Source: Acidimicrobiia bacterium
Lineage (GTDB): Bacteria > Actinomycetota > Acidimicrobiia > Spongiisociales > ZC4RG35
DNA length: 64,000 bases
Direction of reading: 5' to 3'
Assembly: GCA_965214265.1 (NCBI GenBank)
Contig: CBDCBK010000010.1
Location: 678,230 to 742,229, forward strand
Made by a program: the position numbers and the translations under genes. The notes beneath the pieces are model-generated. The model was not told the origin of the DNA, did not search any database, and saw only the letters and a program-made list of their open reading frames with translations. The first letter of the stretch is position 1; each line of letters begins with the position of its first letter. Shown piece after piece: positions 5,836 to 58,204 of the stretch.

Positions 5836-6180
5836 TTGGCCGACACTAGGGAAGATCCTGTGGGTGGGTATGAGCAGGCGGCTGGCCAAACCCCGGCTCA
5901 GCGCATGGCCCTCATAGCCCGGGACCGGGGTTGTGTGGGCTGTGGCGCTGATCCGGCCTGGTGTCAGGCGCATCACCTCATCCCCTTGGGAGGTCGGGGG
6001 ACCCACCGACATCGCCAATCTGTGCTTGTTGCCGCTGTCACCACCAAGTACACGACGACGGCTGGCAAATCCAACGAACGCCTGCGGGAAAACATGTTCT
6101 CCAACCGCCCCACCCCACAAACCCCTCCCCGCTGCCCATCAAGACTCCACCCCGCCGCCGAGGGCACCGTAAACCAACTA
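5836..6180 (+). pseudogene. fragment of 13E12-repeat/DUF222-type HNH endonuclease (C-terminal HNH motif only, frameshifted)
   Basis: 'CVGCGADPAWCQAHHLIP', then in shifted frames 'GGPTDIANLCLL' and 'CRCHHQVHDDGWQIQRTPAGKH'. This is the HNH core split over three frames. Confidence 0.6.
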
Positions 6181-6247
6181 CCAAACTGATATTGTGAAAA
6201 CAGTCTCCTGGGTTTAAAGGCCTCTATTGTCGGCGGCTGCCCGGGGA

Positions 6248-6712
6248 TCAGACCGCGCCCATGTAGCGATGGTGGGACCAGGCCTCGTAGACCACGATGG
6301 CCACCGAGTTGGCAATGTTGAGGCTGCGAACGCCCGGCAACATAGGGATGCGAGCGGTCTCATCCACCCAGGGGGAGGACATGACTTCCTGAGGTAGCCC
6401 GGTCGACTCGGGCCCGAACAGCAGGGCGTCGCCCGGCGCGTAGTCGAGCGAGGAATGCCAGTTGACGCCCAGGGGCGAAAAGGCGTATACCCGCTCGGGT
6501 TGTTCGGCCTCCAGCCAATCGTCGAGGCTTGCGTGGACCTGGGTGACCACCCTCTCCCGATAGTCCATCCCCGCTCGCTTGAGGCGGGTGTCGGACATCT
6601 CAAATCCCAACGGCTCGATGAGGTGGAGAAGGCATCCGGTATTGGCGGCGAGCCGCATGATATTGCCGGTGTTGGGGGGAATCTCGGGCTGGTAGAGAAC
6701 AATGGAGAACAA
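6248..6712 (-). CDS. trmL: tRNA (cytidine(34)-2'-O)-methyltransferase TrmL (SpoU family)
   Basis: Near full-length similarity to E. coli TrmL: 'IVLYQPEIPPNTGNIMRLAANTG ... IPMLPGVRSLNIANSVAIVVYEAW'. Confidence 0.85.
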   Translation of the reverse strand: MFSIVLYQPEIPPNTGNIMRLAANTGCLLHLIEPLGFEMSDTRLKRAGMDYRERVVTQVHASLDDWLEAEQPERVYAFSPLGVNWHSSLDYAPGDALLFGPESTGLPQEVMSSPWVDETARIPMLPGVRSLNIANSVAIVVYEAWSHHRYMGAV

Positions 6713-6733
6713 GTCGGCTCTTTGCCTGGGGAC

Positions 6734-7900: not shown

Positions 7901-7939
7901 TCTTGCCTTTTGTCCGACGGATTCTTCACGTTTTCTTCC

Positions 7940-8320
7940 TTACTCGCTTTCGAATGAGTTCATGTCGGCGGCTTGATAGACGCCGAAGATTATCCCCTGG
8001 GGGTCGCGGCAATAGGCGACCTGGCCCACCTCGGGGATGTCCTGGATGGGCACCACCATCTCCCCGCCGGCTGCGGAGACCTTTTCCAGCGCCTCTGAGA
8101 TATCGATCACGTCCACAGTGATCACGGTGCGGGCCTCCTGGTCGGGGGAGGGCATCAGCGCGCCGTTGATGCCCGGCCGGTCTTCGGGGCCGGTGGTGGC
8201 CAGCCAATACGGAAAGTCCCCCCACTGGGAGAAGGTCCAGCCTAGCGCTTCGGCGAAAAATTCCCGGCTGGCGGCGGGATCCGGACTTTGATACTCGAAG
8301 TGAACCGGTCGCATTGGCAT
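7940..8320 (-). CDS. VOC/glyoxalase-family protein
   Basis: 126 aa. The motif 'VHFEYQSPDPAASREFFAEALGW...GIIFGVYQ' is typical of the glyoxalase/bleomycin-resistance fold. Confidence 0.6.
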   Translation of the reverse strand: MPMRPVHFEYQSPDPAASREFFAEALGWTFSQWGDFPYWLATTGPEDRPGINGALMPSPDQEARTVITVDVIDISEALEKVSAAGGEMVVPIQDIPEVGQVAYCRDPQGIIFGVYQAADMNSFESE

Positions 8321-8340
8321 TGTCGCTTTCTATTGGGTTA

Positions 8341-10149: not shown

Positions 10150-10673
10150 ATGCGCTAATAGAGAATATCAAGATGCTGCCTTTAGGGATAAAAGGAACCC
10201 AGAGGATGCCTGGGGAGGGATGGTGGAGAGGGGTCGGCGGCGCGAGTTGTGAAAATCCGGGGCTATTCGCGAAAAAAGGGGCGATGAATCCCCGGAACAC
10301 ACTGGCAGAGTCACTAAACACCTCCGGTCCGTTCCGACGTCGTCCGGACCGCAGAATCCCAGAGGTTATATGCCGCGAAACACCCCTCACCGGGGCTCGG
10401 ATTTTCACGACTTCACAGATGACGGCGGTGGCGGGGAGAGGGCCTGAGGGGTGAAAAGTGGCCAGCCGATTTTCGTGATTTAGGGTTCCCTTTTCGCGAG
10501 TTTGGGGTACCGTTTCGGTGCTCGTTGCATAGGGTTCCCGCTCCCCATTAATAGGGGACAGGGCATTCTTCGAGTGGCGGGACGTACGAGCCGGCCCAAA
10601 CTCCTGTCCGATGAGATCCGGGCGGTCTATTCTTGACAGAGCTACCCCTCTTTCGCGAACTGCCTGCCCATCG

Positions 10674-12728
10674 ATGTCGATGACCACCTTAAATCAAATA
10701 TCACGCTTCTTCAACCGGGAGCTTTCCTGGCTGGACTTCAATAGCAGGGTGATTGCGCTGGCCGAGCAGGAGGAGACGCCGCTTTTGGAGAAAGTGCGGT
10801 TCCTCTCCATCTGGGCCTCCAATCTGGATGACTTCTTCCAGATCAGGGTGGCGGGGCTCAAGGAGCAGGTTGCCCACGGCGTGAGAAGAAGAAGCCCCGA
10901 CGGACGCACCCCTGGCCAACAGCTCTCCGCCATCCGCGCTGAGACCTCCGAGCAGTACCTGCGGGCCTCCAAAATATTCTGCGATCAGCTGGTTCTGGGT
11001 CTGGCCGAGGCAGGCCTAGGCCTCAAATCCTATGCTGAACTGGACGAAAAGGCCGCCACCTATCTTGACAAATACTTCCAGGACACCGTCTTCCCGGTGT
11101 TGACCCCCCTGGCGGTGGATCCCTCTCATCCCTTTCCCCACATCTCCAGTCTCTCTCTCAACCTGGCGGTACATGTGCAGGAGAGCCAAAGCGGGGCGGT
11201 CCGATTCGCCCGGGTCAAGATCCCACCCATCCTCCCCGCCTTCGTGCCCCTGTGGGACAGCGGATGGTTCGTCCCGCTCGACGATCTGATCGCAGCGCAT
11301 CTCGATGAGCTTTTCCCGGGGATGCGGATTTTGGGCTATCACCTCTTCCGTGTCACTCGCAACGCCGACTTCGAACTGGAGGAGGACGCGGGCGGCGATC
11401 TGTTGGCCGCCATCGAGTCGGAGTTGACCCGGAGAAGGTTCGGGCGGGCGGTCCGTCTGGAGGTGGCCGGGACGATGAGCAGTGAGGTGCTGGACATGCT
11501 CACCCGCGAACTGGAGATATCGGAATCCGACGTCTACGTCATGGACGGGGTGTTGAACATGGTCGACATCGGGTTCATGGCCGCTCTGCCCCGACCGGAG
11601 CTGCAATATCGGCCCTGGACATGGGTGCCCCACCCCCGGCTGGCGGGACGCATCAGTGAGAAACTGGACATGTTCGAGGTGATCAGGGAAGGGGACATCC
11701 TGGTGCATCACCCCTATGACTCGTTTGCCTCCTCGGTGGAGGAGTTCATAGTACAGGCGGCTTCGGATCCCAACGTGCTGGCCATCAAGCAGACCCTTTA
11801 TCGCACCGCCAGTGACAGCGTGATCATGAACGCCCTGATGGAAGCCGCCACCCGAGGCAAGCAGGTGGTGGCGCTAGTGGAGTTGAAGGCCCGCTTCGAT
11901 GAGGACCGCAACATCACCTGGGCGCAGAGGCTGGAAGACGTTGGTGTGCACGTCGTCTACGGAGTGGTGGGCCTGAAAACCCATACCAAGGTCGCCCTGG
12001 TGGTCCGGCGGGAAGGGGAAGAGATCCGACGCTACTCCCATATCGGCACCGGCAATTACAACGAGCACACCGCTCGCATCTATGAGGATCTGGGGCTGTT
12101 CACCTGTGATGAGGCGGTGGGCGCCGACCTGAGTTTCCTCTTTAACTATCTGACCGGATACAGCCGTCACCCCGCGTACCGCAAGCTCCTGGTCTCTCCC
12201 ATTTTCACCCGGCCTCGCATCCTCAAGCTCATCGAGTCACAGGCCAACCCGGGGGGCCGCATCACCATGAAGATGAACTCTCTGGTCGATTCGGTGATGA
12301 TCGAGGCTCTTTACGCTGCTTCTGTCGCCGGGGCGAAGATCGATCTGGTGGTCCGGGGCATTTGCACCCTGGTGCCGGGCGTGGAGGGGATGTCGGAGAA
12401 TATCAGGGTGCGATCCCTGGTGGGTAGGTACCTGGAGCACTCGAGGATCTACAGATTCGGTGGTCGGGAGAGTCGGGTCTACTACATGGGGTCGGCCGAT
12501 CTGATGACTCGCAATCTCGACAACCGGGTGGAGGCCATGGTGCCCATCGAGGATCCTGATCTGCAGTTCCGCATCGATGAGGTCTTCGAGGTGCTGATGG
12601 CCGACGACACTCTTGCCTGGGAACTGGAAGCGGACGGGAAATGGACCAAGGTGAAGGAGCGGCAGGGCCTCACCACCCATCTCGAGCTGCAGTACCTCGC
12701 CGAGGCGAGGTCCCAGGCCCGTTTCTGA
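10674..12728 (+). CDS. ppk: polyphosphate kinase 1
   Basis: Collinear with mycobacterial PPK1 ('NRELSWLDFNSRVIALAE', 'FRVTRNADFE', 'HTKVALVVRREG', 'RSLVGRYLEHSRIY'). The start is taken at ATG 10674 inside the longer ORF. Confidence 0.9.
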   Translation: MSMTTLNQISRFFNRELSWLDFNSRVIALAEQEETPLLEKVRFLSIWASNLDDFFQIRVAGLKEQVAHGVRRRSPDGRTPGQQLSAIRAETSEQYLRASKIFCDQLVLGLAEAGLGLKSYAELDEKAATYLDKYFQDTVFPVLTPLAVDPSHPFPHISSLSLNLAVHVQESQSGAVRFARVKIPPILPAFVPLWDSGWFVPLDDLIAAHLDELFPGMRILGYHLFRVTRNADFELEEDAGGDLLAAIESELTRRRFGRAVRLEVAGTMSSEVLDMLTRELEISESDVYVMDGVLNMVDIGFMAALPRPELQYRPWTWVPHPRLAGRISEKLDMFEVIREGDILVHHPYDSFASSVEEFIVQAASDPNVLAIKQTLYRTASDSVIMNALMEAATRGKQVVALVELKARFDEDRNITWAQRLEDVGVHVVYGVVGLKTHTKVALVVRREGEEIRRYSHIGTGNYNEHTARIYEDLGLFTCDEAVGADLSFLFNYLTGYSRHPAYRKLLVSPIFTRPRILKLIESQANPGGRITMKMNSLVDSVMIEALYAASVAGAKIDLVVRGICTLVPGVEGMSENIRVRSLVGRYLEHSRIYRFGGRESRVYYMGSADLMTRNLDNRVEAMVPIEDPDLQFRIDEVFEVLMADDTLAWELEADGKWTKVKERQGLTTHLELQYLAEARSQARF

Positions 12729-37280: not shown

Positions 37281-39010
37281 TGAACGCGTTTCGTCTTCGA
37301 CAATGGGACTGCGCGCTGGGAAGGAGTCCCGTTGAGAGGGAAACGACCGAGAAGAGAGTGCTCGGAGGAGTTCAAATGTGACGCGGTGGAGATCGTGGGC
37401 AGTTCTGGCAAGCCAATACACCAGGTCGCTAACGAGTTGGGGATCTATGACTCGACGTTGGGGAACTGGGTACGTCAGGATGAGATCAACCGGGGAGATC
37501 GGGAAGGGCTGAGTACCGATGAGAGGGAACGGCTCCGCGAACTCGAGCTGGGCTTCCCCCCGTATCGTGGAGGCTTGCTCTTTGAGGAGGAGCTTATGTC
37601 TGAGATACGTAGAAGGTATGACCCGGAGTTCAAGTCTGGGGCGGTACGGATTGTTCTGGAGACTGGGAAACCGATTGCCCGGGTGGCCCGGGATTTGGGT
37701 CTTCAATGCGGGTACGTTGGGGAACTGGGTGAAGCAGCAGCGTGTTTCCCAGGAGGGCAACGGGCCGTTGGGCGAGGACGGCTTGGCTGAGCTTGTTCGG
37801 CTGCGGAAAGAGGTGGCGGAGTTGCGGACGGGGGCGTGATGTGCTCAAACGATCTGTGGTCCTGTGGGTCAAGGAGGCGACACGATGAGCGTGGTATCCC
37901 ATATCGCCGCCCAGAGGACCAACCACGGTGTTCCCCACGCGGTTTCCTGTCGGCTTCTGGGGGTGAGCGAGTCCTGGTTCTACAAGTGGCGCAGCCGCCG
38001 CCCGACCGCCACCGAACAACGCCGGGCGGAGTTGGATGTGAGGGTAAGGATCGTGTTTGAGACATCTGCAAGGACCTACGGTTCTCCCCGGGTTTGTGCT
38101 CAGCTGCGCTCCGATGGTGAACGGGTCTTTAGAAAAGACCGTGGCCCGGTCTATGCGCACCCAAGGGCTCGTTGGCACGGCAGAAACGGCGCCGGCGAGG
38201 GCTGACCCGCCCCGACAAAGCCGCTCCTGTGGCGCCTGATCTGATCCGCCGCGATTTCACCGCCCAAAGACCTAACGAGAAATGGTGCGGCGATTTCAAA
38301 CAGATCAACACCCAGGAGGGTCCCGTCTACCTGGGAACGGTCGAGGACCTGTACTCCCGGCGGATGCTGGGGTTCGCTCTCAGTTACACCTATCCCACCG
38401 CCGAGCTGGCCAAAGCCGCGGTGAACATGGCCATCGCCACCCGAGGCGGAACCGTCGAGGGAGTGATTTTCCACACCGACCGAGGCTCTCAAATACAACG
38501 CCGAAGCGTTCACCAAAGCCTGCGCGCGGCTGGGGATCGTCCAGTCCATGGGAAGAGTAGGCTCCGCCTTGGACAACGCCGCTGCCGAGTCGTTTTTCTC
38601 CACCCTCCAACAGGAACGGATCAACAACCGACGGTACGCCACCAGAACCCAAGCCAGACAAGACATCGCTAACTGGATCCACACCTGGTACAACCAACAC
38701 CGACTACATTCCACCCTCGACATGACCAGCCCCATCAACTACGAAAAAACCCACGAAACAACCTAACCAACTCTCCACGATTTGGGGGGAACCTCAAGCG
38801 GGGAGAACGCTCGGCTGCGGATGGAGCGTGAACTCTTGAAACGAGCTGTGGCCTTCTGGGTGAGGGAGTAGAACGAGTGATGCTGTATCGCTTCGTCGAT
38901 GCCCAGAGAGCCGAAGGGTTCCCCGTCAGGATGGTGTGTTCGGTCGTGGGGGTTTCCCCCTCGGCCTACTACGGGTATGGGAAGCGGGTCCGGCTCAGCT
39001 GGCCGAGGCC
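37281..39010 (+). mobile_element. IS3-family element 'B' (IRL near 37281 starting TGAACG; orfA N-terminus at 37332..37548; orfA C-terminus and orfB N-terminus at about 38797..39010), interrupted by nested IS 'A' and 3'-truncated
   Basis: orfA-B N-terminus 'RGKRPRRECSEEFKCDAVEIV...DERERLRELE' resumes after element A as 'ENARLRMERELLKRAVAFWVRE*' followed by orfB 'LYRFVDAQRAEGFPVRMVCSVVGVSPSAYY'. No right inverted repeat was found before integrase homology begins. Confidence 0.6.
37549..38796 (+). mobile_element. IS3-family element 'A' (~1.25 kb) nested inside element B; 3-bp AGC target-site duplication; orfA (HTH) and orfB (DDE) with several frameshifts
   Basis: Inverted repeats TGGGCTTCCCCCCGTATCGTGGAGGCTTG (left) and TGAGGTTCCCCCCAAATCGTGGAGAGTTG (right, reverse complement), flanked by AGC on both sides. 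orfA reads 'MSEIRRRYDPEFKSGAVRIVLETGKPIARVARDLG...ELVRLRKEVAELR' then (+1 in a G5 run at 37830) 'RDVLKRSVVLWVKEA'. orfB reads 'VSHIAAQRTNHGVPHAVSCRLLGVSESWFYKW' ... 'HTDRGSQ' ... 'GRVGSALDNAAAESFFSTLQQE', spread over three frames. Confidence 0.7.
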
Positions 39011-39019
39011 AACGTCAGA

Positions 39020-39934
39020 GCCGTCGCACAAGGCCGAGACCCCCGAAGCCACCGGGACATCACCTTCAAGACAATCGCCATGGAATACATCGACTGGTGC
39101 GCTTTGGGGGGCACATGGAGTCCCGGAGGTCGGCGCCGCCAGTCCTGGACAAACAGTCTCACCACCTATGCCTTCGCAGTCATAGGCGCAATGCACCCCC
39201 GGGATATAACCAGCCTCCATATCTTTGAGATCCTAAAACTCATCTGGATCACCAAACACAAGGCCGCCGTGGACCTCGGAGGCCGGATCAGCAAGATAAT
39301 GAAATACGCCATAGCCCTGGGTCACTGCGACACCGATCCCGCCCAGAGAGCCCTGGACGGTATGCCTCCCGTTCACATAGAAACCAAACACCGCAGATAC
39401 ATCCATTACAAGCATCTCGGAGAAGCCCTCAGGATCGTGGCAGCGTCCGACGCCGACCCCATCGCTGTCAACGCTCTTATCTTCGCGGCCCTCACCGGTG
39501 TCCGCAGCGGCGAACTCCGGAAAGCCACCCGGGACCAGTTCCACATCGAGGAGCGCAGGTGGCACATACCTGCGGCGAATGTCAAGAACCGCCGCTAGCA
39601 TTTCGTGCCACTATGCGACATCGCCATAGCGGTGCTGGAGGACACCTTCGAACGCACAGGCCCCGACAGCGAGTGGGTGTTCCCCGCGCCTCGGGGAGGG
39701 ATGATGCACTCCGACAACCTCAAGAAACCCCTCCGGGATTGTGGACTCGACACAGACGTCCACGGGTTCAGATCATCTTTCCGCACCTGGGCGGCCGAAA
39801 ACAACATCGACGAGAAAGCCGCGGAAGCCGTCCTCGCCCACAAAGAACCCAGCCCTCGGTCGAAACTGACACCTGGAATGACACAGCAACCAAATGGATC
39901 CCCGAATTATGCCTCTGACCAGGCCAAACACTGA
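39020..39934 (+). pseudogene. P4-type tyrosine recombinase/integrase remnant: 5' end replaced by IS3 sequence, in-frame TAG at 39596-39598, degenerate catalytic-Tyr region
   Basis: 'ALTGVRSGELRKATRDQ' (catalytic Arg box), 'KNRR*HFVPL' (K...H.VPL box split by TAG), 'HGFRSSFRTW' (H..R box). Ends 11 nt from the 3' end of tRNA-Ser. Confidence 0.65.
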
Positions 39935-39943
39935 TGGGGTCTC

Positions 39944-40034
<91 letters not shown>

Positions 40035-45084: not shown

Positions 45085-45863
45085 GCTCGCCACGAACACT
45101 ATTTGGCGCACGTCCTCGGGCTGAGACCCGGGATGGTCGTGGCTGACCTCGGTTGCGGCGTTGGCGGACCGCTAATTGAGATTGCTCGATTGTCCGGCGC
45201 CAGGATCGTGGGAATTAACAACAATGCTTACCAAATCGAACGCGCCCGAAAACACACCGAAGAAGAGGGCCTGACTCATCTGGCTGAGTACATGCAATGC
45301 GACTTCCAGGACGTCGATGCTCTGGACAACTCGTTCGACGCGGTCTACGCCATCGAGTCAAGCTGCCATGCGCCGGACAAACTCAGCGTATATGGCGAGG
45401 TGTTCGCTTGCTGAATCCGGGCGCGTGCTTTGCTAATTACGAGCGGTGCCTGACGGATCGCTTCGACGCGAGTAATCCCCACCACCTCAAGATCAAGGCT
45501 GACATCGAGCTAGGAGGCGGCCTGCTAGACATTGACTACCGTCATGCTGTTGATGACGCACTTCGAACGGTGGGATCCGAGGTGTTGGAAATACGAGATC
45601 TTGCGGAACAGTCAGGTCCGTCCATCCCTTGGTATCAACCGCTGATCGGTTCAGGTCTATCCCTGGCCAGCTTTCGCAGTTCATTGATCGGACGCTTTGT
45701 CACCCACATCTCACTGCGAGCGCTTGAGGCGTTTCACGTTGTGCCGCAAGGAACGGTTCGCGTATCGAAGACTTTGAATCTCTGCGCGGCTGCGATGGTC
45801 GAGGCGGGCCGGCTGGGTATCTTCACGCCAATGTACTTTTTGCACGCTCGCAAGCCGGCGTAG
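45085..45863 (+). pseudogene. sterol 24-C-methyltransferase (Erg6/SMT)-like SAM-dependent methyltransferase remnant: 5'-truncated and frameshifted near 45400
   Basis: Homology begins at 'ARHEHYLAHVLGLRPGMVVADLGCGVGGP...GINNNAYQIERARK...AIESSCHAPDKLSVYGEVF', then in the next frame 'LLNPGACFANYERCLTDRFDASNPHHLKIKADIELGGGL...IPWYQPL...LGIFTPMYFLHARKP'. It is collinear with Erg6 (ARHEHYLA..., EIELGDGIP, LFTPMMLFVARKP). Confidence 0.65.
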
Positions 45864-45993
45864 CGCGGTCCGAACTTGGCGTTCGAGTCCCTCAGCCAGA
45901 ATTTCAGGCGCCGACAGCACCCCCTACTGTCGCTTTCACCGCGTCCGGAAACCTCCGCTTCTCCCAGAGCGCTGTTGAACCACCCCCCACATT

Positions 45994-46110
45994 TAGGTCA
46001 AAAGCCATCCGAAAACACCCCACTGACGGCCTGACGCCCCCAACGCCGGCAACCCCGGTGGACATGGGGCTTCGCTAACTAACAGGCCCGTAAATCGCCG
46101 ATCTGAGGGG
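45994..46110 (+). repeat. DR0: degenerate copy of the tRNA-Leu 3'-flank repeat ('aaaacaccc..aacggcctga.gcccc')
   Basis: Alignment by eye with DR1/DR2. Confidence 0.4.
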
Positions 46111-46261
46111 TCCCTGGGGAGTGCGGGGAATGGCTGAAATGCCCTTGATCCCGCTGGCCCCGGCTGTGTCGGCAGCCGTCTTTGATGCCGTGGGGGTATG
46201 GTTCGACGAGTTGCCCCTCACTCCGGAGCGAATCTCCGCTTGCAATCCAAGCAACACGGCC

Positions 46262-46382
46262 CCCGACCAGCCAAAAACACCCTCCGCAACGGCCTGAAAC
46301 CCCCAAAACAGGAATAATCAGCGCGTCCGACGCTAAATCGCTAATACACAGCGTCCTAAATCGCTAATACTTCATGGTGGGC
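46262..46382 (+). repeat. DR1: ~115-bp direct repeat of the sequence that flanks tRNA-Leu(CAG), ending in the tRNA 3'-terminal 8 nt (tggtgggc)
   Basis: 'gaccagccaaaaacaccctccgcaacggcctgaaacccccaaaacagg...gcgcgtccgacgctaa...catggtgggc' versus 51803..51908 'gaccagcctaaaacaccctccaaaacggtcgcgaacccctaaaaccagg...gcgcgtctgccgctaa...gatggtgggc'. Confidence 0.7.
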
Positions 46383-46465
46383 TGTTAGCGACCACCCCTG
46401 ACCTGCACCCTAGCTGAGGGTTCCGAGAGAGCTCCACATTTCAAAGGGGTCGTGCTCCACATTGC
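46375..46465 (+). repeat. R1: ~90-nt repeat-family element (GGCTGTTAGCGACCACC...TGACCTGCACC...GGTTCC...GCTCCACATTT...GGGGT.G.GCTCCACATT)
   Basis: One of three copies (R1-R3) plus a short R-like sequence at 45968-45998. Contains an internal direct 11-mer GCTCCACATTT x2 spaced about 25 nt apart. Confidence 0.7.
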
Positions 46466-46573
46466 GGGAGCATTGATGACGGGTCACTCCTGAAAGCGGC
46501 CGACCTCCCCCGTCGACGCTAGATGGCCACCAGGCAAGGAAGGTGGGGAGAGGCCGCTGGAGGCGCGGTTGTC

Positions 46574-46972
46574 TTAACGAATGATCCAGTCGATATCGAA
46601 GTCGAACTTGCCACCCTCGTCCCTGGCGAATGGACTTAGATCGCAAACCTGATTTCCTTTTGTATTCCAGGAAATCTCTCCGCCGTCGATCTCGCAGGCC
46701 ACCTCCTTTGCCCTTTGATGCTCAAGGGACTCGTTCTGGTTTTCGATCATCGCTCCTTGGTTTTCAACGATCACCTTCTGGTTTTCGATCATCACATAGA
46801 GGATGCCGGCCAGGACGAGAAGTATTCCTGTCAAGAGAACGGCTATGAACCGAAAGGGTCCTGATCGGGAATCTGACAATCTCTGAACATCCGCGCCCGC
46901 CGGGGTGGACCCTTGGTTAGGGCTGCTTTCACTCATTGGAGAATCCATCTTTTCTGGTCTGCCCAGATACAA
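46574..46972 (-). CDS. hypothetical single-pass membrane protein (lower GC; internal short repeat MIENQ...)
   Basis: TM 'FRFIAVLLTGILLVLAGILYVMI'. Flanked by the R1 and R2 repeats. No recognisable domain. Confidence 0.4.
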   Translation of the reverse strand: MYLGRPEKMDSPMSESSPNQGSTPAGADVQRLSDSRSGPFRFIAVLLTGILLVLAGILYVMIENQKVIVENQGAMIENQNESLEHQRAKEVACEIDGGEISWNTKGNQVCDLSPFARDEGGKFDFDIDWIIR

Positions 46973-46997
46973 ACGCCTGAGTCATGTGGTTAGGGTA

Positions 46998-47090
46998 GGC
47001 TGTTAGCGACCACCGTTGACCTGCACCTTGGGAGTGGTTCCCTGAGGTGCTCCACATTTCGGAGGGGTGGGGCTCCACATTTGGGAACTC
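46998..47090 (+). repeat. R2: second copy of the ~90-nt repeat-family element
   Basis: 'ggctgttagcgaccaccgttgacctgcacc...ggttccctgaggtgctccacatttcggaggggtggggctccacattt'. Confidence 0.7.
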
Positions 47091-47275
47091 CGATTTATGC
47101 CGAAGGGTGGCATCGAGGTGGTTATGGACTTACACCAGCACCGAAGTTAACCCTTCCCGATGGTTCCCCCCACCGGGACTAGCTGATAGCACGCCGGTTG
47201 ATGGGCCGAAACGCAGATGGGGTCAATGAAGCAACTGGCCTGTGCTGCCCCTCCATGGGTTTGGCTGTGCAGTTA

Positions 47276-47788
47276 CTATTCGATTGAGGAGTACAGTTTT
47301 CGATGCGTCACCGAAGGCGATTCATATCCGTCGTCTATTTGAAGATCCTGCCCACGGGCAGCTTGGACCGCTAGCTGATCACACCGCTCGTTTTCTGGGT
47401 CGCCAGCGTGTCCGCGTACCCACCGAAACTCCACCTCGTGCTTCTCGCATAGGTCAAGGAGCCTCCCCCAGAGGTCTGGGTTCACAGCCCGTTCCCGCTT
47501 ATTGCGCATCCAACCGTTCTCCCGCCAACGTTTAGCCCAACCCTCCTGAATGCCTCCCACTACATATTGTGAGTCGCTGTGCAGGATCACCTGGCAGCTC
47601 TGGTTGAGGACTTCGAGACCTTTTATCGGTCCCATCAACTCCATGCGGTTGTTGGTTGTGCGTCGGTAGCTCCCGCGAAGCTCACGGCGGTGAGCCCTGT
47701 GTGACAGCACCACTCCATAGCCGCCTGGACCGGGATTGCCGACGCATGCGCCATCCGTGTAGATGATGACTTGCTTTTTGGGTGCCAT
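47276..47788 (-). CDS. rnhA: ribonuclease HI
   Basis: 'IYTDGACVGNPGPGGYGVVL', 'TNNRMEL' and 'HSDSQYVV...WVRGHAGDPENERCDQLA' (DEDD catalytic residues). 170 aa. GC is lower than in core genes. Confidence 0.85.
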   Translation of the reverse strand: MAPKKQVIIYTDGACVGNPGPGGYGVVLSHRAHRRELRGSYRRTTNNRMELMGPIKGLEVLNQSCQVILHSDSQYVVGGIQEGWAKRWRENGWMRNKRERAVNPDLWGRLLDLCEKHEVEFRWVRGHAGDPENERCDQLAVQAARGQDLQIDDGYESPSVTHRKLYSSIE

Positions 47789-48138
47789 CAGCCTGATACC
47801 TTGGCTATAGAACCGGGATCGAGTTCGAATCCGGCCTCCCCAAGCCGCTGGCAGAGCTTTGCCGCTGCCTCTTTGACATGGTTGTTGAAGGGCAGGTAAA
47901 TGATGCCGCTGGCATCTGAGGGAACGTCGACATGGCCTTTCTTCAATATGGCAACTCGAGGTCTTCCGAACGCCGCTATCAACATTCCCATTTCCATAAC
48001 AACATTCTGTCTGGCGCGAGGTGCAGCGTTTGCTGGATTATCCCCCTGCTCGTATCCCATGTCATCAGGGGTGAGCAACACGATCCCGAATCGCATCCCC
48101 TTTGATGGAGATACGATTTCGCGTTCCAATGCATCCAA
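47788..48138 (-). CDS. TIR-like nucleotide-binding domain protein (COG4271/PF10137-like), N-terminally short/truncated; stop overlaps rnhA start (TGATG)
   Basis: 'FGIVLLTPDDMG...APRARQNVVMEMGMLIAAFGRPRVAILKKG' matches the conserved core of the TIR-like (MTH538-type) domain. It begins with TTG and there is a stop two codons upstream. The usual N-terminal 'VFIvHG' strand is absent. Confidence 0.5.
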   Translation of the reverse strand: MDALEREIVSPSKGMRFGIVLLTPDDMGYEQGDNPANAAPRARQNVVMEMGMLIAAFGRPRVAILKKGHVDVPSDASGIIYLPFNNHVKEAAAKLCQRLGEAGFELDPGSIAKVSG

Positions 48139-48589
48139 TCCTGCTCAACTGGATTTTGCTGCTCATCTGTGTCGTTGCGCACCTCGGGGATCATCTTCAT
48201 TTAGCCACTCCAATTCGGACCTTCGCCGCTTACTCAATGATATACCTTGATGCTTAGCCTGTCGTGCTCTAGGGTCACCAACGGCCAATCGCCAATTCCG
48301 GATGTGCTTCCCGGCCCGATGTCAGCGACCAAGAGAGAACCAGATGCCGTTCCCTCCGATTTGGTGCAACGGGAACTAGACGATACCAGGACCAGTTTCG
48401 CTGATAAGTGCCCACTCATTAAAGAAACGCTCCTGCCTTGCGGGAGTGGGAACGGTTGTCGCCGGAGCAGCAGAACCGTTGCCGCGTGGCGCTGGCGCGA
48501 CCGACCGCACCGCCCCCCGATGCGCTCGTGAACCAGAATGACAATCCCCGTGTTTCTGCTACTGTTACTATCCGCCCTAAGCACGGGGA

Positions 48590-49294
48590 ATGGTGGTCAC
48601 AGCTACGAATATCTCAATCCTTGAACGCCCAACCTACGGGATTTCAGAAGCCGCCAAGCACTTGGGCATCCGCCGTGACCGTGTTCGCGCTTGGCTTGAT
48701 GGCTACATACGGCGGGGCAAGGCATATCCGCCGGTAATCCGCCCACAGGCCACAGGCGAAGACACGGTGACTTGGGGAGAGTTCGTCGAACTCGGTTATC
48801 TCCGCGAGTACCGTCGCAAAGGAGTGTCGCTCCAGTATCTGCGTCCGGTCATAGACGAGTTGCGTAACGTGTTCGAACTGCCCTATCCGCTGGCGACAAA
48901 GAACCTGTACCTCAATGGCCACGAGATAGTTTGGAAGCTGCAGGTTGAAAACAATCTGCCTTCCGCTCTTGCCATGGTGGTGCGGTCGGGACAAATGATG
49001 ATGCTGGCTGACGAGGCTAGCAGTTTCTTCAACAAAATTGAGTTTGATCCCAATGGCGATGCCTTAGGCGAGGCTTGCCGCATATACCCGGGAGGCGTGG
49101 ATGCGTATGTGAGCATCGACCCACTGGTGTGCTTTGGCCGCCCGGCCATTGGAGGCGTGGCCACTGAGCGACTTTGGGAACTACGAGTAGCTGGAGAAGA
49201 GGTGAGCGGGATCGCAGCAGACTATGAAATGCAGGAGTACCTGGTGAGGGCAGGCGTTGCCTTCGAGGAGATGCAAAGGGTCTTAGCGGCATAG
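48590..49294 (+). CDS. DUF433-domain protein with N-terminal HTH-like extension (antitoxin-like partner of DUF5615)
   Basis: The C-terminal 'CFGRPAIGGVATERLWELRVAGEEVSGIAADYEMQEYLVRAGVAFEE' fits DUF433. Confidence 0.55.
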   Translation: MVVTATNISILERPTYGISEAAKHLGIRRDRVRAWLDGYIRRGKAYPPVIRPQATGEDTVTWGEFVELGYLREYRRKGVSLQYLRPVIDELRNVFELPYPLATKNLYLNGHEIVWKLQVENNLPSALAMVVRSGQMMMLADEASSFFNKIEFDPNGDALGEACRIYPGGVDAYVSIDPLVCFGRPAIGGVATERLWELRVAGEEVSGIAADYEMQEYLVRAGVAFEEMQRVLAA

Positions 49295-49303
49295 CCAGCG
49301 CCT

Positions 49304-49708
49304 ATGCCACACCGGTACTTCGCAGACGAGACAGACTTAGGACTCGGTAAGCGACTGGACGACTTCCTGCCGGGAGAGGTTGTTTATCCCGGTCATCCTG
49401 ACCTTCCAGAGATTCCTCGAGGGTGCCCGGACGACAGATGGTTAGAATTCGTAAGCCGTCGTCGACTTGTTGTGATCACTCGTGACAAACGTATACGAAC
49501 GCGGCCTGTACAAAAAGCAAAGTGGATCTCTTACAAGACGCGGGGCTTCGTATTGACCGGGAGAAAGAACCAAACAAGCACCGCAAGTCTCCTAACCCTC
49601 AAGAAGCACTGGACATCGATCCTCGAGCAGATACAAAACGAGCCTGATGGTCCATGGATGTTCGCAGTGACCGAGGCAGGCGGACTCCGAAGAGTGCCCT
49701 TGGAATAA
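49304..49708 (+). CDS. DUF5615 (Mut7-C/PIN-like RNase) family protein, toxin-like partner
   Basis: 'RYFADETDLGLGKRL...RRRLVVITRDKRI' fits DUF5615. It lies 10 nt downstream of the DUF433 gene. Confidence 0.55.
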   Translation: MPHRYFADETDLGLGKRLDDFLPGEVVYPGHPDLPEIPRGCPDDRWLEFVSRRRLVVITRDKRIRTRPVQKAKWISYKTRGFVLTGRKNQTSTASLLTLKKHWTSILEQIQNEPDGPWMFAVTEAGGLRRVPLE

Positions 49709-49956
49709 GGACGGGGATTCTGAGGTGGATTGTCAGTAGGCACTTCCCACTTGCATTGTTAGTCGCTTGGCCACTGCCTGTGTTTCCTGTCGGCCCCCAA
49801 CTCCAAACCTTCGTCCCCGCTTCTCCCGTCTTCCAGAAAAAAAAATGGGCTTCTCCCGAAGCTTCCCTACACAATTGACGTCCCAAGAACTCCAGGTTCC
49901 CGCGGCGCGCGCAATGCTGGGACTCGTGCATCCTGCCCCGGCCCGGGTCGGTGTGG

Positions 49957-50052
49957 TGGTGGGGTGGGCTGTTAGCTACCACCTCTGACCTGCGCCTTAG
50001 AAAAGGGCTCGCAGAGGGTTCCACATTTGAAGGGGGTGGGGCTCCACATTTC
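49957..50052 (+). repeat. R3: third copy of the ~90-nt repeat-family element
   Basis: 'ggtgggctgttagctaccacctctgacctgcgcc...gggttccacatttgaagggggtggggctccacattt'. Confidence 0.7.
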
Positions 50053-50316
50053 AGCAGAGTAGGTGTGGTTGGGTTTCCCGACGGGGGGGTGAAGTCGTCG
50101 ATGCAGGAAAATCCGAAGGTCTCGGCAAAGAAACCTTCCTCCTGGAGTTCTAGCACTAAGAGGCGGGTGCGACAGACTATCTCTTGTAGTGATTCTTCAA
50201 GAGTGGCCTGCGTTGCCATGCGGCGTTGGGAATAGTAGACGCGTGGGGGCGGATCCTGGGGCACTGTCGGGGCGGCATCGGCGAGTTCGGCGAGCCACTC
50301 CAAGGAGTATGTCAAA

Positions 50317-51588
50317 ATGGATCCTCATATCGGGCGTAGGTGCTGGTATCTGGCGGATTCTTCACGCTACGAACGAAGTCCTCCGCTGGTACCCCTGACT
50401 GAACGCCTGACGCGCCGAGCCGGTTGTTCGGCGGTTCGTAGATGGCCGGGCTCCCAGCATAGGCTAGAGGCACTAATGACCTGTCAGGGCTCTTCCGTAT
50501 CCGTTGCGCGCCAACCGGGGCGGTACGCGCCGGTGAGGTGGCAACTAGGCGCGGTGTTGTTGGCCTCCCTGTTCCCCATATTCGTTGAGGTCATGCCCCA
50601 TGAGGACGCTTTTCTGTTGTCGGGAATGATTTTCGTGGGCAACTCCGCGGGTGTCGCGTTGAATCTGGCCCTTTTCCACAAGAACCTGGTGGCCGACAGG
50701 ACCGTTCTGCGGTTGCTGCTCCGCAGGGCCGCCCCTTGGCGGATCGGACGGGGCGAGGGCACGGCCGACCGGGAACGCCAGATGTTGCTGTCCCGCTTGA
50801 GCTTGGTGTGTATCTGCGCTCAGATCAGCATGATCCCTTATGTGTTGTCCACCAACTATGTGGATACTGCCGTCACCGCCATACTGAATGCCGCTGCGCC
50901 GATTCTCTTTGTGGTGCTGTTGTCAAGACAGGATCGTACCGTGGGCAGATACCGCAAACTGACCGCGGGTACCTTTGGGGTGCTGTTGCTTGCTTTCGCG
51001 GGTCTGACGTTGGTCGTGCTGGGAACGACCGACCTGGCCTCCTCTACTCGGCCTGCACCTCTCGGAGGTTTGGTTATCGGATTGCTCCTGGCGTTGCTGG
51101 CCCCCGTGTTGATATCGTTCAGTGCCAGGGCATTCCGATGGGGATCCGAGATGGCCTCCGATCTGTGCACCATGGGCCATGCATCAGCCACTGACCGGCA
51201 GCGAACCGAGTCGGCGTGCGTGCTGTTGGCGATTGGGGTGGGCAGCCTCGGCGCGTCGGTGCCCACACTCGTGATCGCTCTCGGCACGGGAGAGCGCATG
51301 GGCATTCTGCCTCTTGCCGCCGCATTTGCTTACGGGCTGATAGTGCAATGTGGCACCGCCGTATGTCACCGCACTGCGATGCTCCGCACCAGATCGCTGT
51401 CCATCAGCGCCCTCTCCTATGCCACTCCCCTTTTCGGCCTGCTGTGGTTGTGGGTGTTCTCGGACATACAAGTGGCGAACATCGACTATGTGCTGATAGG
51501 TGCCGTGGGGATTGTCACGGCGAACCTGTTGCTGGCCAGAGTCATTCCCTCCAGGAGTTCCCCAAGGGCATGTTCCTCCTCCCGATAG
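50317..51588 (+). CDS. DMT-superfamily (EamA-like) membrane transporter; start uncertain
   Basis: About 10 TM helices. The C-terminal 'LSYATPLFGLLWLWVF' is an EamA-like signature. A plausible internal start lies near 50472. Confidence 0.5.
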   Translation: MDPHIGRRCWYLADSSRYERSPPLVPLTERLTRRAGCSAVRRWPGSQHRLEALMTCQGSSVSVARQPGRYAPVRWQLGAVLLASLFPIFVEVMPHEDAFLLSGMIFVGNSAGVALNLALFHKNLVADRTVLRLLLRRAAPWRIGRGEGTADRERQMLLSRLSLVCICAQISMIPYVLSTNYVDTAVTAILNAAAPILFVVLLSRQDRTVGRYRKLTAGTFGVLLLAFAGLTLVVLGTTDLASSTRPAPLGGLVIGLLLALLAPVLISFSARAFRWGSEMASDLCTMGHASATDRQRTESACVLLAIGVGSLGASVPTLVIALGTGERMGILPLAAAFAYGLIVQCGTAVCHRTAMLRTRSLSISALSYATPLFGLLWLWVFSDIQVANIDYVLIGAVGIVTANLLLARVIPSRSSPRACSSSR

Positions 51589-51800
51589 TAGGTCCCCATG
51601 AAGGTTGGTTCGGAACTCGCCACCCCCGGGTCATTGGTCCGGCCCCGGCCGACTGCGCTACCCAGACGACGTTCTCAACCGGCGATGATCCTCTAGCCTG
51701 TACCATCCCCACCGCTCCCCTGAACCGACAGTAACCCCTACTGTCGGCCACGCCGGTCCGAGAAAGCAGGCCCTTCCCCCAAGCCGCCGGATCACGGCTG

Positions 51801-51908
51801 CTGACCAGCCTAAAACACCCTCCAAAACGGTCGCGAACCCCTAAAACCAGGGAAATCCAAGGAGAATCGGCGCGTCTGCCGCTAAGTGGCTAACAGTCGA
51901 TGGTGGGC
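51801..51908 (+). repeat. DR2: native copy of the flank repeat immediately adjoining the tRNA-Leu 3' end
   Basis: See DR1. Confidence 0.7.
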
Positions 51909-51989
51909 GAGGGGGGACTTGAACCCCCACGGGTGTTAAAGCCCACAGGATCCTGAATCCTGCGCGTCTGCCAATTTCGCCACTCGCCC
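51901..51989 (-). tRNA. tRNA-Leu (anticodon CAG), CCA encoded
   Basis: Reverse complement: acceptor GGGCGAG, anticodon stem CAGGA/TCCTG with loop TTCAGGA, long variable arm, T-arm GGGGG-TTCAAGT-CCCCC, then ACCA. Confidence 0.85.
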
Positions 51990-55939: not shown

Positions 55940-58204
55940 ATGGAACTCCCCTACACCATGGCCGATCGTTACCGATTGGTGAGTCATTTGGCCAAAGGGG
56001 GCATGTCGGATGTCTACCTGGCGGTGGATGTTGCCCTGGGGAGACGGGTGGCTGTCAAACTTCTTCCCAAATCGCACAGCGAAGACGAATCTTTCGTGCG
56101 ACGATTTCGCCGCGAAGCTCAATCCGCCGCCAATCTGAACCATCCCAACATCGTGGGCATTTACGACTGGGGAGAGGCGGAAGGGTCGTACTACATGGTG
56201 ATGGAACTGGTGGAGGGGGACAGTCTGAGTGATCTCATCCGCGAGGGAAGACCTATTTCTCCCCGGCGGGCGGTGGAGATAGCCCGCCAAGTGGTCCTGG
56301 CCCTGGCCACAGCGCACCGTTTGGGGGTGATCCACCGGGATGTGAAGCCGGGAAACATCATGCTCACCACCGACGGGACGGTGAAGGTCGCCGATTTCGG
56401 GATCGCCCGGGCATGGAATCACTCCACCGACTTGACTCAAACCGGCTCGATCATCGGGACCGCCACCTACTTCAGTCCTGAACAGGCTCAAGGTCGCTCT
56501 GCCGATCGACGCTCCGACATCTACTCGTTGGGGGTGGTTCTTTACGAGATGTTGGTGGGCCGACCTCCTTTTCAGGGCGAGACTCCCATGGCCGTCGCCT
56601 ATCAGCATGTCTCCACAACAGTCCCTCCTCCTTCCTCCCGGAACCGTGAGATCCCTCCCGAGCTAGACACCATCGTGCTGCGGGCCCTCGCCAAAGACCC
56701 CGATAGCCGCTACCAGGATACCGAGCTGTTCCTCGGGGATTTGGAGGCATGGCTGAGGGGAGAGAGGATTCCCACGGGCGCGCCCTCTCAACCATCGGTG
56801 ACTCCGAAGCAGGAGCAGGTGATGGTGCGCCAGCCCATTGCCGTGTCTCGAGTGGGCGGGCGCGGGGCTCCCAGGGGAGGGAGGGTAATTCCCCAGAGCT
56901 ATTACCCGCACATGCAGGAGCGCCGTTCGGTGCCCCTGCCCTTCGTGGTGGGGGTATTGGTGCTTCTGGCCGCCTTGGCCGGTTTGAGTTGGGTGGTCTG
57001 GTCCCTGCTCCAGGCGCCGGAGCCGACGCCCGACGCGGTGGTTGTCGCCATCCCCGATGTGGTGGGAAGATGGGAGACCGACGCCTTTTCCTCCATACAG
57101 GAATCGGGGCTTATCGTTCGGGTCGTCCGCCAGAATAGCCAGGAGATGCCCGAAGGAAGGGTGATCGCCACCAACCCCGCGGCGGGGGAGCGGGTGGAGT
57201 CTCGCACCGAGGTGGAAGTGGTCGTCTCCAGCGGCCTGGAGAAGTTTGCCGTTCCCTTGGTGATCGGCCAAACCCAGGGCACGGCTGAAAACCTCATCCT
57301 GGCACAGGGATTAGCGGTGGGTCAGATCGAATTCGTCGAGGACAGCGGTTTCCAGGTGGGGACGGTCATCGACCAGGATCCCCTGCCGGGGCCGCTTTTG
57401 CCATCAGGAACTCCGATCGACCTGGTGGTGGCGACTGGCCCCGGATTGCTGGTGGTCCCCGATGTGGCGGGGCTGCCCGGCAGTGAGGCTCTCTCGGTTC
57501 TGGCGCAGTCGGGTCTCAGGTGGGCCGAGACAACTGAGATTTCCGATACGGTGGCGGTGGGCGATGTGATCAGGACCGAACCGGGCGCAGGTGGGGGTAT
57601 TACCGCTATCGAGCAGGTGGTGGTGGTGATCTCCGAGGGCCCGGAACTGCTGGTGATTCCTGACGTGGTGGGGCTGTCAAGTAGTGAGGCTCTCTCGGTT
57701 CTGGCGCAGTCGGGTCTGAGGTGGGCCGAGACAACTGAGATTTCCGATACGGTGGCGGTGGGCGATGTGATCAGGACCGAACCGGGCGCAGGTGGGGGTA
57801 TTACCGCTATCGAGCAGGTGGTGGTGGTGATCTCGAGTGGCGTCGCGTTGCCGGTCGTGCCGGATGTGGTGGGGTTGCCCAGCAGTGAGGCGCTCTCGGT
57901 CTTGGCGGATCTGGGCTTGGATTGGGTGGAGGTGGTCGAGGCTTCCGATACGGTCGTGGTGGGTGGGGTGATCAGGACCGAGCCGGGGGCGGGTGAGCAA
58001 GTGGAGGAGGGCAGCCAGGTGGTCGTGGTGATCTCCGAAGGCCCCGAGATCACCACGACAATCGAGACCACCACGACAATCGAGACCACCACGACAATCG
58101 AGACCACCACGACAATCGAGACCACCGCTCCGGAGGGAACAGGGACCACCGTTCCGGAAGAGACGGAGACGCCCGACGACACCACGACAACCACGGCAGG
58201 TTGA
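55940..58204 (+). CDS. pknB: Ser/Thr protein kinase PknB with five PASTA domains and C-terminal (TTTTIE)n tail
   Basis: Kinase subdomains ('GGMSDVYLAVD', 'HRDVKPGNIM', 'DFGIA', 'GTATYFSPEQ') and a TM near aa 335-360. Five PASTA repeats follow; the third and fourth are identical. Confidence 0.9.
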   Translation: MELPYTMADRYRLVSHLAKGGMSDVYLAVDVALGRRVAVKLLPKSHSEDESFVRRFRREAQSAANLNHPNIVGIYDWGEAEGSYYMVMELVEGDSLSDLIREGRPISPRRAVEIARQVVLALATAHRLGVIHRDVKPGNIMLTTDGTVKVADFGIARAWNHSTDLTQTGSIIGTATYFSPEQAQGRSADRRSDIYSLGVVLYEMLVGRPPFQGETPMAVAYQHVSTTVPPPSSRNREIPPELDTIVLRALAKDPDSRYQDTELFLGDLEAWLRGERIPTGAPSQPSVTPKQEQVMVRQPIAVSRVGGRGAPRGGRVIPQSYYPHMQERRSVPLPFVVGVLVLLAALAGLSWVVWSLLQAPEPTPDAVVVAIPDVVGRWETDAFSSIQESGLIVRVVRQNSQEMPEGRVIATNPAAGERVESRTEVEVVVSSGLEKFAVPLVIGQTQGTAENLILAQGLAVGQIEFVEDSGFQVGTVIDQDPLPGPLLPSGTPIDLVVATGPGLLVVPDVAGLPGSEALSVLAQSGLRWAETTEISDTVAVGDVIRTEPGAGGGITAIEQVVVVISEGPELLVIPDVVGLSSSEALSVLAQSGLRWAETTEISDTVAVGDVIRTEPGAGGGITAIEQVVVVISSGVALPVVPDVVGLPSSEALSVLADLGLDWVEVVEASDTVVVGGVIRTEPGAGEQVEEGSQVVVVISEGPEITTTIETTTTIETTTTIETTTTIETTAPEGTGTTVPEETETPDDTTTTTAG
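57483..57835 (+). repeat. exact tandem duplication of a 201-bp PASTA-domain unit within pknB
   Basis: 152-nt blocks at 57483-57634 and 57684-57835 differ by 1 nt. Confidence 0.85.
58049..58131 (+). repeat. 18-nt tandem repeat x4 (accaccacgacaatcgag) encoding TTTTIE
   Basis: Direct reading. Confidence 0.9.

Follow-up and report, generated by a model that had tools for sequence, protein, structure and literature searches.

A repeat-rich islet stands beside an intact tRNA-Leu(CAG) gene in a 64,000-nucleotide stretch of an Acidimicrobiia bacterium genome (contig CBDCBK010000010.1), referred to here as the window. The islet is probably a tandem array of decayed members of a site-specific transposon family. 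It holds two kinds of repeat, a 95-nt sequence denoted R and a longer sequence, denoted the flank, that abuts the tRNA gene. On a modest balance of probability, R and flank delimit homing transposons of a class not yet described. A Tn5-superfamily DDE transposase and a catalytically dead partner protein would place the element, always in the same orientation, at the ACCA terminus of tRNA and transfer-messenger RNA (tmRNA) genes. The target would have changed from lineage to lineage (Leu-CAG, Leu-TAG, Ser, Val and tmRNA), and the elements would be what built tRNA-linked defence islands in Acidimicrobiia. The data show tandem accumulation of elements with R and flank ends, each inserted in the same orientation at a tRNA/tmRNA 3' terminus. 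Their cargo is mostly anti-phage defence.

Repeats and insertions at the tRNA-Leu(CAG) end

The ends and junctions in the window are listed below; loci from other assemblies carry L numbers.

45908..46086, plus strand: DR0, the oldest right-end remnant, recognized by the flank profile, with hairpin CCGACAGCACCCCCTACTGTCG (45911-45932), truncated at about 46086
46252..46373, plus strand: DR1, a right-end remnant recognized by the flank profile and by the repeat search (families D2, D5 and D13), with two CTAAATCGCTAAT repeats at 23-nt spacing
46374..46378, unstranded: junction 5-mer ATGGT, separating a right end from the left end that follows; the same 5-mer stands at the tRNA junction
46379..46470, plus strand: R1 left end, with terminal GGGCTGTTAGCGA, an ACCACCCCTGACCTGC block and 11-mers at 46431-46441 and 46454-46464
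46997..47088, plus strand: R2 left end, preceded by AGGGT (46992-46996), with 11-mers at 47049-47059 and 47072-47082
49966..50057, plus strand: R3 left end, preceded by GGGGT (49961-49965), with 11-mers at 50018-50028 and 50041-50051
51716..51900, plus strand: flank A, the right end of unit C, with hairpin CCGACAGTAACCCCTACTGTCGG (51725-51747), A/C-rich conserved blocks and terminal ...GGCTAACAGTCG
51901..51905, unstranded: junction 5-mer ATGGT, the insertion point, complement of the tRNA ACCA plus 1 nt, where the window and L005/L003 diverge exactly
51901..51989, minus strand: tRNA-Leu(CAG), the intact target gene (ARAGORN; Rfam tRNA, 56 bits)

Contigs of close relatives, found by exact-protein look-ups (those with TadA and PP2C returned no further strains), carry different islands at this tRNA end. 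In L001 and L003, 99% identity to the window extends from the FHA/PP2C/FtsW side across the tRNA gene to about 51890; beyond this point the two contigs hold other genes (Eco57I/MmeI-type methylase, SNF2 helicases and unknown genes). Their ~170-nt tRNA-adjacent stretch has only 70-72% identity to the window where the tRNA side has 99%, which means that the flank travels with each island. The sequence shared with the tRNA gene is TGGTGG(GC) alone, 5-8 nt; the longer repeat, situated downstream of the tRNA gene, belongs to the element. Sequence comparison thus indicates that the ~170-nt "tRNA flank" is the right end brought by each element and not duplicated chromosomal DNA.

The most direct view of an insertion comes from a sister strain represented by L005 and L003. 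L005 is identical to the window on the left through the R1 core and again from R3 through flank A. This identity runs to GATGGTGG (...GCTAACAGTCGATGGTGG) and is followed by a fourth R copy (TCCGTTAGCGACCACC...) and, past flank A, by a large-helicase, DISARM-like island where the window has the tRNA gene. The fourth R copy and the island in place of the tRNA gene imply that a new element inserted precisely at the tRNA end, with R tRNA-distal. The element, of ~24 kb, stands exactly at the ATGGTGG of the tRNA end, and its new R adjoins flank A, which supports R and the DR repeats being element-end sequences. An insertion that duplicated ATGGT (or ATGGTGG) with zero base loss fully explains the difference between the window and L005/L003. 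In the L017 array, complete units stand beside tRNA-Leu, each in the order core, R, cargo, flank, core. The serial site-specific integrations at tRNA-Leu proposed by the first-pass annotation therefore hold as serial site-specific insertions; its integrase att scars are not supported, as the complete elements L034 and L036 contain no integrase.

That the L003 and L005 contigs are one element is inferred from protein P0001 on a 34.4-kb contig. Its genes (L003 1-5739 and L005 11412-16170, same sample) include an SNF2 helicase, a 1415-residue Eco57I-type methylase and a 1609-residue DEAD/MZB helicase, a DISARM-like set.

Both repeats are well delimited in the window. A repeat search finds three 95-nt copies of R (46376-46470, 46994-47088 and 49963-50057) with mutual identity of 76-80%, and an nhmmer profile of 13 R copies from several genomes, searched against the 64 kb down to E<=10, matches these three alone (E 8e-29, 1.7e-25 and 1.2e-26). 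The 11-mer GCTCCACATTT, with at most one mismatch, occurs six times in the 64 kb, always within R and paired at 23-nt spacing; 0.74 occurrences are expected by chance, and six were reached in none of 100 shuffles. The 11-mers are possible protein-binding sites. Both searches bear out three R copies with an internal 11-mer pair, as first annotated; an "R-like stub" placed at 45968 does not match the R profile. Each copy is, as had been claimed, fused to a tRNA-end-like core, with ATGGT, AGGGT and GGGGT before R1, R2 and R3, followed by GGGC or AGGC. Sequence conservation of R is 75-100%, and R3, which belongs to the sole window unit with both ends retained, is 99-100% identical in L005, L015 and L017. 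R2 has two 11-mer units in the window (47060-47082 region) and one in the near-identical assembly L002 (4884-4990), a clean 23-bp unit deletion that is either a polymorphism in subterminal repeat number or an assembly difference.

The flank profile was built from other loci and flank A, leaving out DR0 and DR1. It matches flank A at 51716-51895 (E 5e-42), DR1 at 46252-46380 (E 4.5e-20) and DR0 at 45908-46101 (E 3.9e-13), so that the recurrence of the tRNA-flank repeat in DR1 and DR0 is significant. DR0 was annotated as a repeat reaching a tRNA-end core. Its right-end part (45908-46086) is upheld, and its 3' part from 46087 ("CTGGGGAGT") is instead a remnant of a CoxL-type gene without such a core.

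Complete elements and their two-gene module

The region homologous to flank A stands after a transposase gene in L001, L003, L034-L038 and L040. Two loci preserve complete elements. The L034 element (~175-12013, 11.85 kb, transposase identity 86%) lies at tRNA-Leu with both ends in one contig. From the left, it reads older flank, GTGGT, R (GGTCCGTTAGTGACC...), a trypsin-like protease, a Hachiman-type helicase, an AbiJ-like gene and HTH_3, and continues with a 253-residue partner, a 595-residue transposase, and a hairpin and flank ending ...CTAACGGACC, then GTGGT and tRNA-Leu. The L036 element (6861-11981, 5.1 kb, 43% identity) lies at the 3' end of the tmRNA gene in the order R-like end, DUF2971, HTH_3, genes of 74, 309 and 589 residues, hairpin and flank, tmRNA, and an older right-end remnant stands before it. 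Neither complete element has a match to Phage_integrase, Resolvase or Recombinase.

The same gene pair, in the same arrangement and orientation, occurs at tRNA-Ser(TGA) in L035 (67% identity) and at tRNA-Leu(TAG) in L040, where a distant 619-residue member accompanies a 320-residue partner. In L037 (36% identity), the transposase gene, hairpin and flank stand at tRNA-Val(TAC), with no partner called and an IS21 in its place. In L038, TTGGT is all that separates the right end from the left end of a further element.

The hairpin lies directly past the transposase stop codon in all elements compared, and its changes are compensated (CCGACAGT...ACTGTCGG, CCGACAGC...GCTGTCGG and CTGACGGTC...GACCGTCAG). 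The outermost 10-13 bp of four elements are inverted repeats that differ between elements and match within an element.

L034: left terminus GGTCCGTTAGTGA, right terminus (reverse complement) GGTCCGTTAGGGA
L005+L003: left terminus GGTCCGTTAGCGA, right terminus (reverse complement) GGTCCGTTAGGGA
Window unit C: left terminus CTGTTAGCTACC, right terminus (reverse complement) CTGTTAGCCACT
L036 (tmRNA type): left terminus GGCCTCTGGGCCA, right terminus (reverse complement) GGCCTCTGGTCCA

The 5-mers flanking the element match in four of six elements; the (TGG)n context permits 3-7 bp, and a recombinase overlap region would look alike.

L034: GTGGT on both sides
L005+L003: ATGGT on both sides
L005 unit C: ATGGT on both sides
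L017 unit C: AGGGT on both sides

The gene abutting the flank in L001 and L003 is an open reading frame (ORF) of 595 residues, preceded by one or two paralogous ORFs of 279-314 residues. Remnants of the C-terminal part of the 595-residue gene stand directly before the flank copies of L005, L015 and L017. Family assignment required homologues and structure prediction because direct searches were empty: Pfam gave no match to the 595-, 308-, 279- and 150-residue proteins themselves even at E<=1, and profile searches against PDB sequences gave none. A database search returned 54 homologues of the 595-residue protein, and for five of them a PF01609 domain was precomputed. Alignment of 37 sequences shows D189, D340 and E515 to be invariant, and a C-terminal block Y-x2-R-x3-E-x6-K (YREK) is the signature of IS4-type transposases. 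PF01609 is matched by 13 of the 37 members (best E 6e-6), and NCBIfam IS1182 matches are weak (24-36 bits against a cut-off of 270; protein P0002 has none), such that no match reaches the curated cut-off of a named insertion sequence family. An AlphaFold2 model (predicted local distance difference test, pLDDT, 82.6; predicted template modelling score, pTM, 0.82) has Tn5 transposase as its top PDB fold match (Foldseek E 7e-4, probability 0.98), followed by other RNase-H-fold transposases and integrases. Alignment and model together indicate that the ~590-residue protein is a PF01609-type DDE transposase (IS4/IS5/IS1182 superfamily, Tn5-like) with intact catalytic residues. The family is large, with 315 cluster representatives at E<=1e-30 and 1458 at 1e-3 in a profile search of 1.84 billion representatives. 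An invariant Cys cluster (CPQC ... CC, residues ~440-480) is inserted between the second Asp and the Glu in L001 (7767-9554) and homologues; it may be a zinc-binding insertion domain that is not in Tn5.

The partner protein, of ~308 residues, has 89 homologues, all unnamed. Its AlphaFold2 model (pLDDT 91.6) best matches XerA, Cre, XerH, the Tn1549 integrase and IntI in the PDB (Foldseek probability 1.0, E 2e-7), and PF00589 is weakly matched by 9 of 44 members. Catalytic residues were mapped by motif comparison. None of the 44 members shares a conserved tyrosine in the C-terminal third, the canonical LGH reads AGP, and the Arg-I position (G-L-R-x-x-E) is Arg in only 17 of the 44. The partner is read, from alignment and predicted structure, as a tyrosine-recombinase fold that has lost catalysis. 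In the L001 element there are three paralogous recombinase-fold genes, 52-88% identical (3402-3905, a 167-residue fragment; 6008-6847, a 279-residue copy; 6844-7770, a 308-residue copy), with nearby 150- and 237-residue ORFs without family.

Array structure, cargo and the distribution of R

No transposase gene is left in the window array, which comprises three left ends and three right ends, a single unit with both ends (49966-51900) and gene remnants. At the far left stands DR0, followed by the CoxL remnant with DR1, then ATGGT and R1 with one ORF and no right end. R2 comes next with the RNase H gene, TIR fragment and HTH-PIN pair, also with no right end, and at the right edge the two-ended R3 unit, with its 423-residue gene and flank A, is followed by ATGGT and tRNA-Leu. 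The genes and gene remnants are:

46087..46240 (end approximate), plus strand: C-terminal remnant of a CoxL-type molybdopterin dehydrogenase, former cargo, 73% DNA match to L010
46574..46972, minus strand: ORF of 132 residues with a hydrophobic stretch and no family match, cargo of the R1 unit that lacks a right end
47276..47788, minus strand: RNase H gene, cargo (PF00075, E 4.3e-44)
47788..48138, minus strand: truncated TIR-domain defence gene (PF10137, E 2e-21; PADLOC PDC-S35, E 1.7e-52)
48590-49294, plus strand: 234-residue helix-turn-helix (HTH) protein with a weak DUF433 match, paired with the next gene
49304-49708, plus strand: 134-residue PIN_10 protein, second gene of the 48590..49708 pair
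50317..51588, plus strand: 423-residue hydrophobic protein, cargo of unit C, with no Pfam or NCBIfam family

The L010 match of the CoxL remnant is the end of a coxL-like gene in a coxMSL operon downstream of an R copy. The TIR fragment aligns to positions 132-244 of the 245-position PDC-S35 profile, its C-terminal half. The HTH and PIN_10 genes look like a toxin-antitoxin pair and are also present in the L015 and L017 arrays. Several cargo assignments of the first-pass annotation are retained, namely rnhA (PF00075), the TIR-like fragment (PF10137 and the half profile of PDC-S35) and the lack of an integrase within the islet interval. GC content inside the islet is modestly lower, 0.52-0.59 versus 0.60-0.66, which agrees with the lower-GC cargo described there. 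The domain annotated as DUF5615 is PIN_10, the DUF433 match is sub-threshold only, and an "EamA-like" transporter finds no Pfam or NCBIfam support.

A 238-residue ORF of the public annotation (49599-50315, minus strand) overlaps R3, has no family match and is probably spurious, and a 109-residue ORF in L005 (10387-10716) "matches" other loci solely through its overlap with R. At the left islet border, a sterol/CMAS-type methyltransferase gene is split into two overlapping ORFs, 45103-45414 (methyltransferase) and 45297-45863 (Sterol_MT_C), which suggests a frameshift or pseudogene. Farther left, a tyrosine-integrase pseudogene (PF22022; 38936-39598 and 39605-39934) stops 10 nt away from the 3' terminus of the tRNA-Ser(GCT) gene (39944-40034), its N-terminal side broken by IS3-type transposase fragments (37332-38766). 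Together they form a second decayed island, 37332-39934, unrelated to the tRNA-Leu array. On the other side of the window, 57437-58044 holds internal ~200-nt tandem repeats (74-83% identical by self-BLAST) in a large ORF downstream of a penicillin-binding protein (PBP) gene; the L034 counterpart of this ORF has Pkinase and PASTA domains.

Outside the window, a genome scan used an exact R pattern of 19 specified bases in one genome per species, a design that diverged copies could escape. True matches are confined to Acidimicrobiia-type metagenome-assembled genomes (MAGs): OZ253443.1 (two loci), OZ244034.1, CBDFJY010000002.1, an OM1-clade bin and RHO1_bin_22. Half of the scan's matches (L006, L007, L009, L011, L012 and L016) were rejected as chance matches. 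A scan of JGI metagenomes added two R copies, of OM1 type only, and scans of viral contigs with two R patterns gave no real match. From each large matching Acidimicrobiia chromosome or contig (2.6-3.1 Mb), the scan returned one or two loci with one to three R copies, and the readable contexts are beside tRNA-Leu or within a syntenic tRNA-Ser to tRNA-Leu stretch. With so few loci per genome in this exact-pattern scan, near a tRNA gene where readable, R is not a dispersed repetitive extragenic palindromic (REP)-like repeat, the genome-wide distribution that would have spoken against a tRNA association. In the OM1-clade MAG, a minimal cyclic-oligonucleotide-based antiphage signalling system (CBASS; SMODS cyclase and S_4TM effector) is bordered by one partial and one full R copy (L026 4114-5876, equal to L008 1063-2825), with a PDDEXK_4 nuclease and a Schlafen/AlbA_2 protein on the opposite side of R in L026.

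Proposed mechanism, alternatives and related systems

An autonomous member begins with a left end of ~95 bp (R), which includes an inverted terminal repeat GG(G/T)C(T/C)GTTAGCGA, a conserved ACCACCYCTGACCTGC block and two GCTCCACATTT 11-mers 23 bp apart. Its interior holds cargo, often with an Xre-type HTH gene, the ~308-residue partner gene and the overlapping ~590-residue transposase gene. The right end of ~200 bp (the flank) extends from the hairpin just past the transposase stop to two 23-bp-spaced CTAA(A/G)TCSCTAAC repeats, the last of which is the inverted terminal repeat. Insertion occurs in one orientation, with the right end against the tRNA/tmRNA 3' ACCA, leaving the target gene intact and NTGGT on both sides. 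The DDE protein may bind the inverted termini and catalyse insertion, NTGGT being a presumed target-site duplication. By analogy with TnsF of Tn6022, the dead recombinase-fold partner may select the tRNA end or bind subterminal repeats, e.g., the 11-mers or CTAA(A/G)TCSCTAAC. Since each new insertion takes the same site, older copies are pushed away from the tRNA gene, and those displaced outward would lose the transposase module and parts of their ends through deletions. Transposase binding may not be the only role of the unusually long, conserved right end and its hairpin. A cursory look for an RNA-guided role saw no segment of the right end that matches the tRNA beyond the core, and that candidate was set aside.

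Several observations count against the proposed transposon. The window contains neither the transposase or partner gene nor a remnant of either, and its repeats are linked to the mobility module through homologous ends in other genomes. Foldseek TM-scores of the transposase model to Tn5 are low (0.25-0.31), as is expected of a multi-domain model, and alone are not decisive. The left ends of L035 and L037 are weak, and two elements have unmatched flanking 5-mers (CTGGT on the left and GTGGT on the right in L036; GGGGT on the left and ATGGT on the right in window unit C). A 5-bp duplication would be short for IS4-type enzymes, and a short common core between inverted repeats is formally equal to the site of a site-specific recombinase.

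This last equivalence underlies the main alternative, unlikely albeit not negligible, in which ~280 bp of R, core and flank form a classical attP that carries arm-type sites. A tyrosine integrase would recombine it with the tRNA end, and this enzyme would be encoded elsewhere or be the 308-residue protein acting with a non-canonical nucleophile. The short core TGGTGG does lie between inverted TCGCTAAY ... GTTAGCGA with repeated motifs in both arms, full-length elements do encode a tyrosine-recombinase fold with a conserved R253/R254/R256/H263 cluster, and an integrase pseudogene stands about 6 kb off at tRNA-Ser. Anatomy alone fits a target-site duplication or a recombinase overlap equally, and the balance is tipped by the encoded enzymes. 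L034 and L036 are complete without a match to the integrase, resolvase or recombinase families, no conserved C-terminal tyrosine is found in any of the 44 recombinase-fold proteins and Arg-I is mostly missing, and the gene most tightly linked to the right end is a DDE transposase with an intact triad. Three other recombinase systems were tried and rejected: the tRNA-Ser-adjacent integrase, which is a pseudogene abutting tRNA-Ser; an integron cassette array with attC sites, as there is no IntI and R is sequence-conserved without a fold signal; and an XerCD/dif-type (IMEX) site, as the junction, judged by eye, is unlike dif.

Homologous exchange between conserved flanks, namely the tRNA/FHA side and the R and flank repeats, could instead make the islet a recombination hot spot that takes up DNA of relatives, in which the repeats are old duplications and no dedicated machinery acts today. 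Strains do differ by whole blocks bounded by 75-100% identical R/flank copies, the window units lack mobility genes, and the 23-bp difference in R2 between near-identical assemblies suggests local slippage. This account is nevertheless improbable, since exchange alone is insufficient when unrelated elements share the 5-mer junction next to the tRNA end, at five tRNA/tmRNA genes in all, and the ends co-vary within elements and are accompanied by a conserved transposase module. Exchange may well reshuffle arrays secondarily without explaining their origin. It is less probable still, to the point of being hardly tenable, that R is a small RNA, terminator or REP-like repeat, the first two of which the first-pass annotation had offered as an alternative. 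R is conserved over 95 nt, intergenic, and has a short GGTGG...CCACC palindrome. However, an Rfam scan of the whole window returns tRNAs and signal recognition particle (SRP) RNA only, with no R family; single-sequence folds have z-scores of -1.2 to +0.24 on both strands; RNAalifold on the R alignment gives -9.7 kcal/mol with an unfavourable covariation term of +0.93; and the orientation of R is not fixed relative to neighbouring genes. Pattern scans also gave only one or two R loci per large matching genome, none far from tRNA arrays where the context is readable.

The proposed DDE transposon combines features of several known systems. TnsF of Tn6022 is an inactivated tyrosine-recombinase-domain protein that selects the comM target (Faure et al. 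2023, PMC10293859). Like Tn6022 (PMC10293859), the proposed system is a DDE transposon homing to one conserved host gene with an inactivated tyrosine-recombinase-domain protein, for which a selector role is suggested by this analogy. Unlike Tn6022, the called genes of L034 and L036 include no TnsA, TnsB, TnsC or TniQ family, the transposase is a single PF01609/Tn5-like protein rather than a Mu/retroviral-type TnsB, the ~308-residue partner is without the zinc-finger N-terminus of TnsF, and the target is a tRNA/tmRNA 3' end rather than comM. The IS4/IS5/IS1182 superfamily, with Tn5 as its structural model, shares the DDE triad and YREK, includes the best fold match (Tn5), and likewise has terminal inverted repeats and a flanking direct repeat, both short. 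It differs in that similarity is far below cut-offs (24-36 bits versus 270 for IS1182), and the elements here have long, unequal ends (95 and ~200 bp) that include subterminal repeats, possess another conserved gene, carry 5-25 kb of cargo and insert in a strictly site- and orientation-specific way, not scattered.

Islands and prophages of tyrosine integrases at tRNA/tmRNA genes resemble these arrays in their 3'-end target, preserved gene, tandem accretion, decaying older islands and end repeats left behind. Here, in contrast, there is no active integrase, the repeat shared with the tRNA gene is 5-8 nt, and the long flank repeat belongs to the element instead of copying the 3' half of the tRNA gene. 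Type V-K, other CRISPR-associated or Tn7-like transposons are DDE elements that stand beside tRNA genes with defence cargo, using TniQ/TnsD or a guide RNA to insert tens of bp downstream. The present insertions differ in occurring at ACCA itself, and the called genes of L034 and L036 include no Cas or TniQ family. Taken together, the system resembles homing DDE transposons (Tn7/Tn6022) in its logic and integrase-driven tRNA islands in its outcome. Full-text literature searches, which are incomplete in coverage, found no description of the gene pair or of tRNA-end-specific PF01609 transposons; the nearest precedent they gave is TnsF.

Islands linked to tRNA genes are usually credited to integrases, and the same outcome here appears to be due to a different two-gene transposase module. 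This would be the second independent case, with TnsF of Tn6022 as the first, of a DDE transposon that recruited an inactivated tyrosine recombinase. Should the module function as proposed, it is compact, with about 2.7 kb of genes and ends of 95 and 200 bp, and is site- and orientation-specific, with its target re-assigned among at least five tRNA-like genes. Its target recognition would be directly testable, and it might serve as a small homing-insertion tool. For annotation, such a module would account for islands that lack an integrase, and for orphan repeats next to tRNA genes, in an actinobacterial class that has received little study.

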